Source: Escherichia phage vB_EcoP_WFI101126. Taken from it: 64,000 nucleotides of DNA. The translations under genes were made by a program, and so were the position numbers. A model generated the notes under the pieces. That model was not told where the DNA came from, did not search any database, and saw nothing but the letters and a program-made list of their open reading frames with translations. Below are positions 40,719-49,432 of the stretch, one piece after another. The stretch lies in the sequence record NC_070991.1; one strand, given 5' to 3'. Position 1 is the stretch's first letter; every line of letters starts with the position of its first letter.

Positions 40719-40967
40719 TTAAAACTCTGCTAAGTACTTAATATCAGAGGCATATACCTCATCAAAGGAAATAGGCTCTCCGTTGTAGAGGAGTTCTATT
40801 TTCAGTATACCAGAGCATTTAGTGTCTTTAGAGTCAACTCTGATAGAGAGTTTATCAACTATCTGAGCTTTAATCTCTTCTATTACTGACTCTTGAGTAT
40901 TACTCACTCCACCCTCCCGGTGGTACAAAATCATCAGGAACGTCAATGATAGTAGGTTCTCCATCAT
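40719..40967 (-). CDS. hypothetical protein (82 aa)
   Basis: ORF track. Confidence 0.4.
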   Translation of the reverse strand: MMENLLSLTFLMILYHREGGVSNTQESVIEEIKAQIVDKLSIRVDSKDTKCSGILKIELLYNGEPISFDEVYASDIKYLAEF

Positions 40968-41081
40968 TCATGCAGGTGTCTTCATTGAACTCTTCACACT
41001 CAAAACATGCTCGTTCGATATTTTTGTAGAAGTCGATGGTTGCTGAACCATCACCACAATCTCGAATAACTAGAGCTACTT

Positions 41082-41825
41082 TCATTTATCTTGTTCCTTT
41101 TCCATAGCCTTAACAATAGCTTTACAGAAACCAGAACGAACAATGTCATCCGATTCGCCGTCTACAATCTCAGCGAACTCATACAGATCATGTTCATCAA
41201 TAAAGTTGGTAGCCCAAGTAAGACCGCTCTCACGACCACGCATATCATGCTGGTTAGTATCACCCATGCAGAACAGCTGAGAGGTTTCTCCCAATCGAGT
41301 CATGATTGAGAAGGCTTCATCTTTAGTGGTGTTCTGGAACTCATCAACAATAACAATAGCATCATTGAAAGAACGACCACGGAGATACTCCAGAGGTACA
41401 AATTCAATGTTACCATTTCCGATTTGGCATTCATAAAACCCTTTACCATATCGCTGAGTAATAACATCAATGATAGGCATCAGGTAGGGTTCAAACTTCT
41501 CACGCATCCCTCCCGGAAGCAACCCAAGAGAGTTGCCCATACCGACTGAAGGACGACTCAGGATAATCTTCTGAATCTTACCACTCTTCAGTGCATCAAT
41601 AACTGTGGAAGTGATTACAAAGGTCTTACCACAGCCCGCAGGAGCGTCTGTGAACACAACTTGTTTAGTCTTGATAGCATTTAGTAGTTCAGACTGAAAC
41701 TGGTTCTGAGGGACTACAGGCTTCGCTAAAACCACTTCTTCAAACTCTCGCTTACCTTTACGAGTGACAAGTGCTTCCCGACGAAGATCTTTCCGTGATT
41801 CTTTCCGTGATTGACGACGACTCAT
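41082..41825 (-). CDS. phoH: PhoH-like ATPase
   Basis: DAPAGCGKTF Walker A, PLEYLRGRSFNDA, IVIVDEFQN Walker B; PhoH family pattern. Confidence 0.8.
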   Translation of the reverse strand: MSRRQSRKESRKDLRREALVTRKGKREFEEVVLAKPVVPQNQFQSELLNAIKTKQVVFTDAPAGCGKTFVITSTVIDALKSGKIQKIILSRPSVGMGNSLGLLPGGMREKFEPYLMPIIDVITQRYGKGFYECQIGNGNIEFVPLEYLRGRSFNDAIVIVDEFQNTTKDEAFSIMTRLGETSQLFCMGDTNQHDMRGRESGLTWATNFIDEHDLYEFAEIVDGESDDIVRSGFCKAIVKAMEKEQDK

Positions 41826-44136: not shown

Positions 44137-44346
44137 TTAATATTCCTTGATTGGGGATACCACAAAACCACCAAGAGGTGAGGTAAAAGATTTATGTAAG
44201 CTTATTTTGCTATAAATCTTTGGAGCCATCTTAAGAGCCTTCTTAAAACGACGAGCATCTTTACGAGTAGCAAAATGCTCTGTAACAGGTATAGAATGGT
44301 CTTGGTAGATATAATACATCACCGTCCAGTATTTTCCCATAATCAA
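44137..44346 (-). CDS. small basic protein, member of a 4-gene paralog family
   Basis: Shares F.TR..AR..KK ... S.H ... KV.Y pattern with 46201..46816 genes. Confidence 0.5.
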   Translation of the reverse strand: MIMGKYWTVMYYIYQDHSIPVTEHFATRKDARRFKKALKMAPKIYSKISLHKSFTSPLGGFVVSPIKEY

Positions 44347-44805: not shown

Positions 44806-44991
44806 TTATAGCATACAAAGAATAATAACAAGAGGTAGTGTTATAGCAAAATGTACCAGAACAACACTACCTAGCTTGATAGCTTTAACATCCTCTTCTG
44901 CTGGGTTTTCTTTAATTGCTAAATTTCGAGCTTTATATATAACAGTACCAACTATTAACGACCACACGGCCCACACAATCAGTGAAATCAT
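44806..44991 (-). CDS. small two-TM membrane protein (61 aa)
   Basis: MISLIVWAVWSLIVG...; paralogous to 45001..45180. Confidence 0.45.
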   Translation of the reverse strand: MISLIVWAVWSLIVGTVIYKARNLAIKENPAEEDVKAIKLGSVVLVHFAITLPLVIILCML

Positions 44992-45000
44992 ATCAAATCC

Positions 45001-45180
45001 TTATGCAGTCAGGAGGTGAAGCAGGAATGGGATAACAACAGCTACGATAACCATGATAGTTGATGCTGTTTGAATCTCACCTTTCTTATCAGGAGTTTCT
45101 TCAATAAGCTTACCAGAAGCCCAATAAATACCACCACCAATAAAGATAGCCCAAATACCCCATACGATTGCTGATAACAT
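45001..45180 (-). CDS. small two-TM membrane protein (59 aa), paralog of 44806..44991
   Basis: Hand-translated MLSAIVWGIWAIFIGGGIYWA...; AAGGA Shine-Dalgarno. Confidence 0.45.
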   Translation of the reverse strand: MLSAIVWGIWAIFIGGGIYWASGKLIEETPDKKGEIQTASTIMVIVAVVIPFLLHLLTA

Positions 45181-45241
45181 ATATCTATATCCTTATAAAT
45201 AAGTTCGCCCCACCTCGGGTTAGGAGACAGGGCGGAGGTTT

Positions 45242-45853
45242 TTAGTAAGACACGTCACCACTTGAATGGGACATGTTGCTCTTGACGAAGTAGCAATACT
45301 TGCCAAGACCTTCATTAATTTCTTGAAGCATACTCTGATCGACAGGGTAGGATGCTAAATCGCCATCAAACTCATCCATCTTCTCAATAATACACATCAA
45401 GGTCATGCACATATCAGAGAGCATACCGTCCATATCCAGATCAGCATTACCCTCTGAGAACCAAGCATGGGAGAGGTAGTTAGCTGCTGTAGCATCCACC
45501 TTAACACAATGGTATCGCATACGCTCAGCAATACGATCTCCTACTTGTCGTGCGTAATCTTCCAGCTCATCAAACATACCATGAACACCCTGAAATCCTG
45601 CACCAGAGACATTCCAGTGGTAGTTCTTAGCTTTGATATGCAAGAGTTCCATGTTAGTTTGTAAGCAGCTTAGGATGTGTTCTAGGCTGTTTCCACTAAT
45701 CATACCCTGCATAGTTTCAAGGCGAGAGATTGAAAGCTCAGACCGGTCTAACATGTTATATTCTGCACGACCCATCTCAGGTAAATCAAAGACATTCTTA
45801 TGCATTTGGGTTTTCTCCATCAAGTTCAACTGAGTTAGCAACGTTACGTGCAA
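45242..45853 (-). CDS. Dps/ferritin-like protein (true start possibly 45820 or 45805)
   Basis: HWNVSGAGFQGVHGMFDELEDY matches the Dps ferroxidase-site pattern HWN..G..F..H..DE. Confidence 0.6.
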   Translation of the reverse strand: MHVTLLTQLNLMEKTQMHKNVFDLPEMGRAEYNMLDRSELSISRLETMQGMISGNSLEHILSCLQTNMELLHIKAKNYHWNVSGAGFQGVHGMFDELEDYARQVGDRIAERMRYHCVKVDATAANYLSHAWFSEGNADLDMDGMLSDMCMTLMCIIEKMDEFDGDLASYPVDQSMLQEINEGLGKYCYFVKSNMSHSSGDVSY

Positions 45854-46127
45854 TATTATCCATTACCTGCTGGGTAATTACGATGCAGTTCTGTGGGTCT
45901 ACTGACTTAGAACGCCCCATTTCAGGGTCATACACCTTAACTCGCTTAGCAGTTGAACCTGTAACCTGAAGAACCTTCAACAGATATCCCTGATTACCAA
46001 TAGACCAAGCAACAACATCACGATTCTTGATAAAGCGACCAAGCATATCACGATGATAAAACTGTTGCATCACCTTGGATTTTGTAATCTCTTCAGTGGG
46101 CGGGGCCACTTTACTCAAATCTAACAT
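45798..46127 (-). CDS. hypothetical protein (109 aa)
   Basis: ORF track. Confidence 0.45.
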   Translation of the reverse strand: MLDLSKVAPPTEEITKSKVMQQFYHRDMLGRFIKNRDVVAWSIGNQGYLLKVLQVTGSTAKRVKVYDPEMGRSKSVDPQNCIVITQQVMDNIARNVANSVELDGENPNA

Positions 46128-46165: not shown

Positions 46166-46175
46166 TATATACATT
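46166..46175 (-). promoter_or_regulatory. AAATGTATAT motif variant, about 39 nt upstream of ATG 46127
   Basis: Read directly. Confidence 0.35.
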
Positions 46176-46200: not shown

Positions 46201-46410
46201 TCAGTAATAAATTACTTTAGACATAAAAGAACCCGAGCTAGGGTCTTCGTACCAGCGATGAATGTCAGCACTTTTAACAGTTCCTATTAGAGCTTTCATG
46301 TTCTTTTTAGCGACACGAGCCTCTTTGCGAGTGTTAAACAGTTTGATATTATCTTTACCTAAGTGTTGTTTCTGTTCCCAAACAACACGAACAGCCCACA
46401 TCTTTTTCAT
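46201..46410 (-). CDS. small basic protein, paralog family member
   Basis: Tandem with two further copies; conserved TR..AR..KK and C-terminal KV.YY. Confidence 0.5.
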   Translation of the reverse strand: MKKMWAVRVVWEQKQHLGKDNIKLFNTRKEARVAKKNMKALIGTVKSADIHRWYEDPSSGSFMSKVIYY

Positions 46411-46619
46411 TAGTAATGTACCTTTCCGCTGATATAAATACGACCAGAAGAATACTCTTTGGCCTTATGGATACTGATACTGTTGACCACGTCACCAATA
46501 AGCATAGTCTTTTTAAAATCTCTAGCTTGTTGGCGAGTGGGCAGTGCAGTCATAGTCATACCACCTGATGCCCACTTAATCTTTGCTAACCAAAATTGTC
46601 TCATAGTGATTGGTCTCAT
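46410..46619 (-). CDS. small basic protein, paralog family member
   Basis: As above; 1-nt overlaps between consecutive genes. Confidence 0.5.
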   Translation of the reverse strand: MRPITMRQFWLAKIKWASGGMTMTALPTRQQARDFKKTMLIGDVVNSISIHKAKEYSSGRIYISGKVHY

Positions 46620-46816
46620 TAATAATAAACCTTGCTGTTGGCAAAAAGAGCACCTTCGTTATTCACAATAGCTTTTCCTATTGTAATCTTACCTGACAGA
46701 CCTATCCCCTTAAAAAGCTTCTTAATTCGACGGGCGTGCTCTCGAGTATTAACAAAATCTACAGATTTTATATCACCTGTCTTGTTATCATGTACACGAA
46801 CAATCCACTTTTTCAT
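46619..46816 (-). CDS. small basic protein, paralog family member
   Basis: As above. Confidence 0.5.
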   Translation of the reverse strand: MKKWIVRVHDNKTGDIKSVDFVNTREHARRIKKLFKGIGLSGKITIGKAIVNNEGALFANSKVYY

Positions 46817-47019
46817 TTTACTAAACCTTTCATATAATCATAAAGAGCATTAGAAGCTTTACCCCATTCAAGGTGCTTCTTATCCATATAACTCTTACAG
46901 GTTTCTTTACTGCTTTCATCACAAATATCAAATCGATGACATGCTCGACCAAATACCATGGCTTTTAACTGAACATCGGTAGTTAGATATTTAAGTTCTT
47001 GAAACTCTTCTTTAGTCAT
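46813..47019 (-). CDS. hypothetical protein (68 aa)
   Basis: ORF track. Confidence 0.4.
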   Translation of the reverse strand: MTKEEFQELKYLTTDVQLKAMVFGRACHRFDICDESSKETCKSYMDKKHLEWGKASNALYDYMKGLVK

Positions 47020-47562: not shown

Positions 47563-48873
47563 TTAGTTATTTGTTTCCATGTCAAAAGAGATTCCACGAC
47601 CCGCTTCATCGGCAAACCGATCATCGAGACTGTGACTGACAGTATCAGCAAGTTCTTCATGAGAGGGAATGTCAAGACTACCTACCACATCTTGAGCAGA
47701 AGCTTCATCAGTCCAGATAACACGAGAAGGGGCGTTGATATCACCAACAGCAAAACCCTGACCAGAGAACTGGTGACGGCTAACAGTCAAACCATTTGAT
47801 CGACTACGAGAAGGACTAGACATCCATCTCTCCATAGAATCACTTGTAATGCCAAGAGCTTCTTCAAAAGATGTTCTACGAGAAGAGCTTAGATTTCGTG
47901 CTTCATTTGCTCGGCGTCTTGTAGGGGCTACAAACACCCCTTCGATTGCGTTATGACGACTAGGCTCTTCTTCTCTACCAAGCAAATCACCACCCGTGTT
48001 AGTCGTTAAATTTGTCAACCCTTCAGACCAATACGCATAAATTTGACCAGACCCATGAAGACTTGACATAATCTGAATCTCTTCATAGGGGATTCCAAAG
48101 AATCGACTCATGTCACGGTTAACGCAATACTGAGCACTTGTTGTATCCTCAATAAGAGAAACCTGACCTAATCCATTAACCAGATGACTAACTGGCTGAG
48201 GTGTAGGAAGGTATCGAGTTTGGGCCATATATTGATATGCAACAGATGGAGCTGAGAATCTTAACACTTGTGAATTAGGCCACTTTTTGTGAACGTATCT
48301 GATTTCACGACTAGAAACAACCACAGGGCAAGGAGCGGTCATAGCTAAATACCCATGAGGGGTCATGAATAAGTTGTCAAGAGTCATCGCACCACGGCAC
48401 ATCATAGGAAAATTATCCAGAACCTCTTCAATAGAAGTAGGATAATTAAACATGAATTGGATACGAACCCCATTCCACTGAAACTCAATAATATCAGTGA
48501 ATGTTAATTGAGAACCCCCAGCATAGGACTCGTTTGTAGCCTCAGCAAGAAGAGATGAATACTCAATATCTTGTGACTCAAGCCATTCCTTCACGTTACT
48601 TTCAATTTCTCTTCCAAGAGCTTGCCAATGATCAGTTGATGTGAAAGTATTTTGGGTTCTTGGTGTTTGTCCTCTGACAATAAAGATATCAATGTCATGT
48701 GGAGCTGTGTTGTTAAGGACAGCATCACGAACAGCCCCACCAGTAATGATGGGACAGATACCGTCTGGAATCAAGTTGTTGTTAATCAACTGTTCAATGA
48801 AGTGACGACCAACAGTGATATCAGGTTGTTGAGCAACCTTATCTTCAATTCGGTTAATCGGGATAACAATCAT
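47563..48873 (-). CDS. pol-beta superfamily nucleotidyltransferase with CCA-adding-enzyme-like head motif
   Basis: ITGGAVRDAVLNNTAPHDIDIFIV (GGxVRD...DxD); remainder has no recognisable CCA body; start set to ATG 48873. Confidence 0.55.
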   Translation of the reverse strand: MIVIPINRIEDKVAQQPDITVGRHFIEQLINNNLIPDGICPIITGGAVRDAVLNNTAPHDIDIFIVRGQTPRTQNTFTSTDHWQALGREIESNVKEWLESQDIEYSSLLAEATNESYAGGSQLTFTDIIEFQWNGVRIQFMFNYPTSIEEVLDNFPMMCRGAMTLDNLFMTPHGYLAMTAPCPVVVSSREIRYVHKKWPNSQVLRFSAPSVAYQYMAQTRYLPTPQPVSHLVNGLGQVSLIEDTTSAQYCVNRDMSRFFGIPYEEIQIMSSLHGSGQIYAYWSEGLTNLTTNTGGDLLGREEEPSRHNAIEGVFVAPTRRRANEARNLSSSRRTSFEEALGITSDSMERWMSSPSRSRSNGLTVSRHQFSGQGFAVGDINAPSRVIWTDEASAQDVVGSLDIPSHEELADTVSHSLDDRFADEAGRGISFDMETNN

Positions 48874-48874
48874 T

Positions 48875-49432
48875 TTACATTTTCCAATATAATGAAGGTG
48901 GGTCGTAAGGGTCAAATCCTGTGAGTTCACACAAGAAAAGATAAACCTTAACAGTTAAGTTAACGTCCTGTTCACAATAAGTAAACATATCTTCAGTGAA
49001 AGCATCCCATGCTTCCTCTTGCTCGCCATAATCGCCCTTAAGTTCTCCTAAGAACTCACCCCACTGCTTCAAACCATGACCTCTTGGGCCACGTCTAGGG
49101 TCGCCTTTCGGATACTCAGGACTGTCACCAATACGGTCAGGTTTAAGATATCGACTAAGACATAAAGTGTCAAAGACGTTAAAACGATATTCAATTAGAT
49201 TAGGATACATTTTCTTCAGAGCACAAAGGTCGAAGTCAATAATATTATGACCCACGAGCACATCTGCTTCTGTCAGTTTACGAATCCCGTCTTCGATTTG
49301 GTGAGGCCGATAGCCCCACCTTTCACCAGTTTCAACATCGAAGATATAAATACACCATACTTTAGTTATGTCATCGTACAGTGCATTACTCTCGATATCG
49401 AATGCAAACACTTTCTTCTTTTTCTTTACCAC
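48875..49432 (-). CDS. DEDDy 3'-5' exonuclease, separate from polymerase
   Basis: [10 protein letters not shown] (Exo I), HNIIDFDL (Exo II), YCEQD (Exo III). Confidence 0.75.

Follow-up and report, generated by a model that had tools for sequence, protein, structure and literature searches.

Three abutting small basic genes and a fourth, separate copy in a phiEco32-like Escherichia phage: one fast-evolving paralog family with a possible AP2-like core

Introduction

Three small genes abutting each other in the genome of Escherichia phage WFI101126, and a fourth one nearby, encode short basic proteins with a similar residue pattern, which raises the question whether they are true duplicates of a single ancestor and, if so, what such a set of proteins might do during infection. 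A first-pass annotation, made from the nucleotide sequence, regarded them as a diversifying family of small effectors of the host-takeover or anti-defence kind. Phage phiEco32 is a model of phage-directed reprogramming of the host RNA polymerase, which involves its sigma factor gp36 and its regulator gp79; to our knowledge, most of its early and delayed-early genes are without known function. The whole 64-kb stretch of DNA analysed here is referred to below as the window. The DNA of the region is 91–95% identical to that of some 100 Escherichia/Shigella phages of the phiEco32 group, the annotated relatives belonging to Kuravirus of the subfamily Gordonclarkvirinae.

Results

Gene organization

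The three abutting genes and the additional copy about 2 kb off, as described in the first-pass annotation, were all confirmed as open reading frames at their coordinates. Their strand had been left unstated: all four are located on the minus strand. This strand also carries the genes between about 30 kb and 64 kb, in keeping with the GC skew, whose sign changes near 30 kb. The four genes, and one adjoining gene given for context only, are the following:

46201..46410, minus strand: paralog A, 69 aa, pI 10.1; ortholog of phi32_69; match to phrog_4939 at E 4.7e-27
46410..46619, minus strand: paralog B, 69 aa (64 aa from the ATG at 46604); ortholog of phi32_70; match to phrog_4939 at E 1.6e-27
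46619..46816, minus strand: paralog C, 65 aa; ortholog of phi32_71; match to phrog_4939 at E 3.4e-25
44137..44340, minus strand: paralog D, 67 aa, between thioredoxin and ThyX; match to phrog_4939 at E 8.5e-22
46813..47019, minus strand: acidic protein of 68 aa, not a family member; predicted to be coupled to C by an ATGA overlap

In the case of D the gene itself stood, while its start had to be moved: position 44346, used previously (44137..44346), is an in-frame TTG upstream of the ATG at 44340. The latter (67 aa, MGKYW) is most likely the genuine start, because it is preceded by an AGGTG Shine-Dalgarno sequence, the orthologs are 67 aa long and the invariant Trp falls 4–5 residues past it. 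B may start at its internal ATG 46604 (64 aa, MRQFW), since its orthologs have 64 aa beginning with MKKFW or MKQFW, and the invariant Trp again follows 4–5 residues past the start. Stop and start codons overlap along the whole trio, with ATGA between the 68-aa gene and C and TAATG both between C and B and between B and A; such overlaps typically result in translational coupling, which would here extend from the 68-aa gene through C and B to A. The 68-aa gene itself matched neither the family HMM nor any Pfam model.

Paralogy of the four genes

A, B, C and D are true paralogs, ancient duplicates of one lineage-specific protein family. Their pairwise Smith-Waterman scores were 49–71 against shuffle means of 21–25 (z = 5.1–10.6), with at most 1 of 2000 shuffles matching the observed score, and all four aligned to phrog_4939 over positions 1–67 of its 67 (E 8.5e-22 to 1.6e-27). 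A family HMM run against every ORF of the 64-kb window retrieved exactly A–D (E <= 4e-22), the next ORF having E = 0.68. Nine columns were invariant in the four-way alignment (M1, W5, T27, R28, A31, R32, K35, K36 and the C-terminal Y); among 35 divergent members, W5, T27, R28 and R32 were invariant, and A31, K35 and Y69 nearly so. The proteins are strongly basic (pI 9.9–10.6) and have a size of about 7.5–8 kDa. The motif W.V...F.TR..AR..KK...S.H...S.KV.Y, suggested earlier for all four, survived as a shared core but not in its strict wording: B reads WLA and LPTR, IH is replaced by IGK in C, and D ends with KEY. No DNA-level repeat was found among A–D, save for 20 nt shared by A and C at their 5' ends, and the duplications must therefore be ancient. 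Taken together, these comparisons show that A–D arose through ancient tandem duplication and have since been kept as separate ortholog groups.

Distribution and copy number

The family (PHROG 4939) is tiny and occurs only in phages, namely those of the phiEco32-like type. When 5.8 billion clusters were searched with a word index, 99 proteins were obtained, all of which fell into the four ortholog groups A–D and most of which were encoded on contigs of about 77 kb; an exhaustive HMMER profile search of 1.84 billion representatives produced 29 clusters only, all single-domain and 47–79 aa long. With C as the tblastn query, 87 phage records were obtained, almost all from kuravirus-like phages of Escherichia/Shigella; the distant members came only from uncultured relatives and Salmonella Gordonclarkvirinae. 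No bacterial or other non-phage context was seen for the family members. The fold matches among BFVD models also included small uncharacterised proteins of Salmonella SE131, Cronobacter GAP52, vB_CsaP_009 and Aeromonas LAh_8.

The members occupy two slots, the first between dCTP deaminase and the gene of a 109-aa protein (phi32_68) and the second between thioredoxin and ThyX, with the following copy numbers (slot 1 + slot 2):

Window, NJ01, Paul and KBNP1711: 3 + 1
phiEco32: 3 + 0
EK010: 2 + 2
SU7: 2 + 0
Metagenomic relative L003: 2 + 1
Metagenomic relative L009: 2 + 0

Thus phiEco32 and SU7 lack D, and EK010 has two copies of it. The order C-B-A is kept in Kuravirus and Nieuwekanaalvirus, and all Gordonclarkvirinae genomes examined, highly divergent metagenomic relatives among them, have the A-type and B-type copies at the same position. 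The conserved positions persist in relatives whose members share only about 25% identity, and in the relative L012 a member about 22% identical to A is still located directly upstream of ThyX. A, B and C have their direct orthologs in gp69, gp70 and gp71 of phiEco32, which are alike in order, position (dCTP deaminase to gene 68) and length, while both D and the coupled 68-aa gene of the window are missing from phiEco32. The family as such has already been catalogued and is an ordinary kind of lytic-phage accessory family: its proteins, including phiEco32 gp69–71, are annotated as "hypothetical protein" everywhere, no functional data on genes of the gp69–71 type were found in the literature, and family proteins were not detected by proteomics of SU10.

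An unannotated weak member at a different position was noticed in Salmonella phage 7-11 (NC_015938, about 40948–41202; L014, 4949–5203, minus strand). This ORF, placed between SaPh711_gp054 and gp055, scored 22 bits and contains the motif W.V...KTRAEARAHKK.

Evolutionary rate and selection

Compared with the same partner genomes, the paralogs had dN values of 0.15–0.24 versus <=0.025 for their neighbors, and they evolved 7–20 times faster than the latter. The gene-wide omega of A–D (0.03–0.43) was 3–10 times higher than that of the neighbors (0.02–0.12), yet remained below 1, and their dS also exceeded the neighbors' values, which suggests exchange with divergent lineages. In each ortholog group the substitutions were clustered in the strand 1–strand 2 loop, the helix–strand 3 loop and the strand 3–strand 4 hairpin, with W5, the TR..AR..KK helix and the 'IH' strand fixed. 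Judging from these rates, the family is fast-evolving and recombining, under purifying but relaxed selection. The previous description of it as diversifying therefore holds only in part, as gene-wide dN/dS values above 1 were not seen between orthologs.

Predicted structure and database scans

The AlphaFold model of A (pLDDT 85.6) showed a beta-beta-alpha-beta-beta fold consisting of strands 2–11 and 21–25, a helix at 28–39 and strands 45–56 and 60–63. The BFVD models of the paralogs superposed with TM 0.66–0.90, and that of the 67-aa protein of WFI101126 (D) fitted the model of A at TM 0.87–0.90. Comparison of the AlphaFold model with solved structures gave no significant fold match. The top match in both fold searches was PsaD, a photosystem I subunit, below significance and with a sequence identity of 5–14%; its biology is unrelated and the likeness was treated as a generic fold resemblance. 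A profile search of all PDB sequences produced nothing at E <= 10, and scanning of 35 members against Pfam, NCBIfam and PADLOC gave scattered single-member matches (E 0.02–1.6), none of them consistent.

The pattern W.V...F.T..eA...A...IH is one that we took to be DUF2188 (PF09954)-like; this candidate was rejected, with no Pfam match to it for any of the 35 members at E <= 10. The 'TR..AR..KK' stretch may resemble the arginine-rich motifs of the lambda and P22 N antiterminators.

Comparison with AP2 domains

The family pattern 'W.V.V...LF.T..EAR.A.K' resembles the strand2-strand3-helix part of the AP2/ERF-type domain (PF00847), which forms the C-terminal part of HNH_3 homing endonucleases of phages and belongs to the structural superfamily of the lambda/Tn916 integrase arm-binding domains. 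AP2-like tails were present in several HNH_3 endonucleases of this phage group, and one of them matched Pfam AP2 with E 4e-6. A comparison set was assembled from 120 HNH(+AP2) proteins collected with full-length HNH-AP2 proteins as queries (a word-indexed search with an isolated 58-aa AP2 tail found nothing); after trimming, 48 tails were used, 36 of them confirmed as PF00847.

The hhalign comparison of the family profile with the 48 tails gave a probability of 57.3% (E 1e-4) over 37 columns, placing family positions 4–42 onto AP2 strand2-strand3-helix, with 'W.V.V...LF.TR.EAR..KK' of the family opposite 'kW.A.I...lG.F.T.EEA..AY' of AP2. The default local mode and the official tool were in agreement (40–60%). 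As controls, the HNH domain of the same proteins reached 0.2% and the reversed family 0.09%, and 200 column shuffles scored 8.0 +/- 1.9 (maximum 18.0) versus the observed 22, a value attained by none of them. Four of five independent subsets of the family gave this register again: group A (52%), group C (64%), group D (5%) and a set made up of distant members alone (23%). Group B, the fifth, has a different register.

The Pfam AP2 HMM (PF00847) matched none of the 35 members even at E <= 10, and the lambda integrase arm-binding model hit a single one of them, not significantly (E 1.6). The AP2 link was also uncorroborated by the fold searches, with no AP2 structure among the matches listed, and no AP2-type sheet-plus-helix fold superposable on solved AP2 or integrase-arm structures was obtained. 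Multi-copy DNA motifs in the window, considered as candidate binding sites, amounted to chance-level pairs only. In contrast to AP2 domains, the family proteins are stand-alone, have no equivalent of the first AP2 strand and possess an extra C-terminal beta-hairpin; their helix is strongly basic, whereas that of AP2 is acidic or neutral. Overall, the profile alignments are suggestive of homology between the family and AP2, but they do not prove it.

In several relatives, genes of HNH_3 endonucleases are inserted in one or other of the two family slots (L007, 22499–22966; L008, 22277–22768; L003, 5367–5876). The slot layouts were thioredoxin-HNH-ThyX in SU7, thioredoxin-member-member-HNH-ThyX in EK010 and dCTP deaminase-HNH-member-member in L003. 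Such sharing of slots by endonucleases and paralogs may reflect either genome-plasticity hot spots or a functional link.

Promoters and transcription

The published promoter motif of the phage sigma factor gp36 is a single element, tAATGTAtA (PMC8948821), and one copy of it was found between A and the 109-aa gene:

46166..46175 (motif at 46168), minus strand: gp36 promoter element, AATGTATATA, exact match to tAATGTAtA

This element is the most upstream of three minus-strand copies (46168, 40701 and 34288), a count equal to that of the middle promoters known in phiEco32 and SU10 (PMC4281155), and separates the A-B-C trio from the middle operon holding D. A is the final gene ahead of this first middle promoter; being directly upstream of it, the trio would therefore be transcribed only from upstream sigma-70 early promoters, while D, as judged from the position of the element, is part of the first gp36-dependent middle operon. 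In published work, CDS69–125 were called early (PMC4281155) and the equivalent region was counted as middle (PMC9965538).

Over the whole window, seven exact AATGTATA motifs were counted versus 2.5 expected:

9049, 19210, 24496 and 34361, plus strand: AATGTATA motifs, exact match
34288, 40701 and 46168, minus strand: AATGTATA motifs, exact match

This total is consistent with the gp36 promoters in the literature (three middle, three late) and one additional candidate on the plus strand. A strong terminator-like hairpin (45206–45234, minus strand) with an 11-bp stem, 7 G-C pairs and a T-rich tail directly follows the Dps-like gene, within the first middle operon and upstream of D; as for terminator-like sites overall, the region scanned had no more of them than expected by chance. 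In the window as a whole, Rfam models gave no match.

Neighboring genes

The 109-aa gene (45798–46127, minus strand), an ortholog of phi32_68 located just downstream of the middle promoter, represents an ultra-conserved island: its protein is 100% identical in the window, NJ01, Paul, phiEco32 and metagenomic L003, with dS of 0.014–0.028, in contrast to 0.15–0.66 for the flanking genes in the same comparisons. It had no Pfam match, and its protein has been seen in the SU10 proteome as CDS68. A second tandem pair (44806–44991 and 45001–45180, both on the minus strand), flanked by the Dps-like gene and thioredoxin, encodes predicted membrane proteins of 61 and 59 aa, which are 33% identical (pairwise E 2e-10); phiEco32 has one gene only, phi32_66, at this position. 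The 455-aa 'nucleotidyltransferase' (47563–48930, minus strand) showed a weak match to the poly(A)-polymerase head domain (E 6e-4, below the Pfam cut-off), and its L003 homolog has a 'faint' precomputed match to Gad2 (PF26128), an anti-Gabija nucleotidyltransferase family; it is possible that this gene product is an anti-defence enzyme.

Discussion

The explanation that we tentatively favor, while rating it somewhat short of an even chance, is that A–D are small proteins which bind nucleic acids and combine an AP2-like core with a basic helix; they would be made near the early-to-middle switch, the paralogs differing in specificity, and the ligand would probably be DNA. Strand 1, strand 2 and the helix would be distantly related, in truncated form, to the AP2/integrase-type DNA-binding domain of the HNH homing endonucleases of this phage group, with the C-terminal hairpin completing the sheet, and the basic stripe of the helix (R28, R32, K35 and K36), together with T27 as the helix cap, would contact the polyanion. 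Since the paralogs have a common core and three differing loop/hairpin regions, they would recognise different sites or partners. Their synthesis would take place in roughly constant proportions shortly ahead of the early-to-middle switch, and they would act around it, affecting transcription, replication, nucleoid state or similar DNA transactions of the phage or the host.

The first-pass proposal, with host-takeover or anti-defence effectors each inhibiting another host protein or defence component and with duplication and fast evolution mirroring an arms race, is a live rival, which we rate somewhat lower than the favored explanation. The paralog family on which it was built has held, and the fast evolution and the location are what speaks for it. 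For the anti-defence link there was no supporting profile or fold match: no match to any anti-defence or defence-related profile was obtained and the fold scores were at noise level. T4 Dmd, AcrIIC3 and phi29-type p56 had no significant sequence or structure match to the family, and the comparison with Ocr/ArdA/p56-like, Acr and Dmd inhibitors revealed neither a significant match nor an acidic DNA-mimic surface. DNA-mimic inhibitors such as p56 are acidic, in sharp contrast to the strongly basic family. Compared with small anti-defence or host-takeover proteins, the family has a fixed position in all relatives examined, and the constant placement of the A- and B-type copies in all Gordonclarkvirinae examined makes it more core-like than the usual anti-defence cargo. 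Moreover, omega is below 1 throughout, and the invariant basic helix stripe common to all paralogs points to one polyanionic ligand rather than to varied protein targets.

It is improbable, in our estimation, that A, B and C are coupled subunits of a hetero-oligomeric accessory factor of the replication/nucleotide-metabolism module, with D as an alternative subunit. The stop/start overlaps joining the 68-aa gene, C, B and A could fix the stoichiometry via translational coupling, the C-B-A order is conserved in Kuravirus and Nieuwekanaalvirus, and the slots are situated among dCTP deaminase, thioredoxin, ThyX and Dps-like genes with a synteny that persists at about 25% member identity; however, a copy number varying from 2 to 4 is awkward for an obligate complex, and the linkage is little informative in a phage group with generally conserved synteny. 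A still lower probability, and a very small one, is left for decaying remnants of homing endonucleases, i.e., orphaned DNA-binding modules whose function is absent or selfish only. The HNH_3 genes in the same two slots of SU7, EK010 and L003 and the AP2-like similarity to the endonuclease tails are in line with such an origin, but the ORFs are intact in every genome examined, an omega of 0.03–0.43 indicates purifying selection, the family-specific invariant residues and the added C-terminal hairpin have been kept over deep divergence, and no HNH remnants are present beside A–D in the window. That the four are chance ORFs, or alike by chance, can be considered already refuted: small size alone would favor it, whereas the similarity is significant, the orthologs are conserved, the fold is predicted with confidence and selection is purifying.

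Going beyond the favored nucleic-acid-binding explanation, the proteins might constitute a hitherto unrecognised, stand-alone 'mini-AP2' class of DNA-binding proteins domesticated from homing-endonuclease tails, each member reading another site, a scenario to which we assign a low probability. One role of such proteins would be to help in setting the early-to-middle transcription/replication switch of phiEco32-like phages; another would be the shielding of the phage's own target sites from the HNH-AP2 endonucleases of co-infecting relatives, which would explain why paralogs and endonucleases are found in the same two slots.

The present analysis shows that gp69–71 and, in many relatives, a fourth copy make up one conserved, fast-evolving basic family with a possible AP2-like DNA-binding core. 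A concrete hypothesis is thereby at hand for the three to four genes that every kuravirus-type phage has. A number of phages of this type are in use, or have been suggested, as therapeutic agents against pathogenic E. coli. Should the AP2 link be false, the four genes represent one more uncharacterised small phage protein family. If it is true, they would add to the cases in which the DNA-binding module of a homing endonuclease has been put to new use as a free-standing factor, in parallel to the AP2 transcription factors of plants, for which an origin from homing endonucleases has been proposed.
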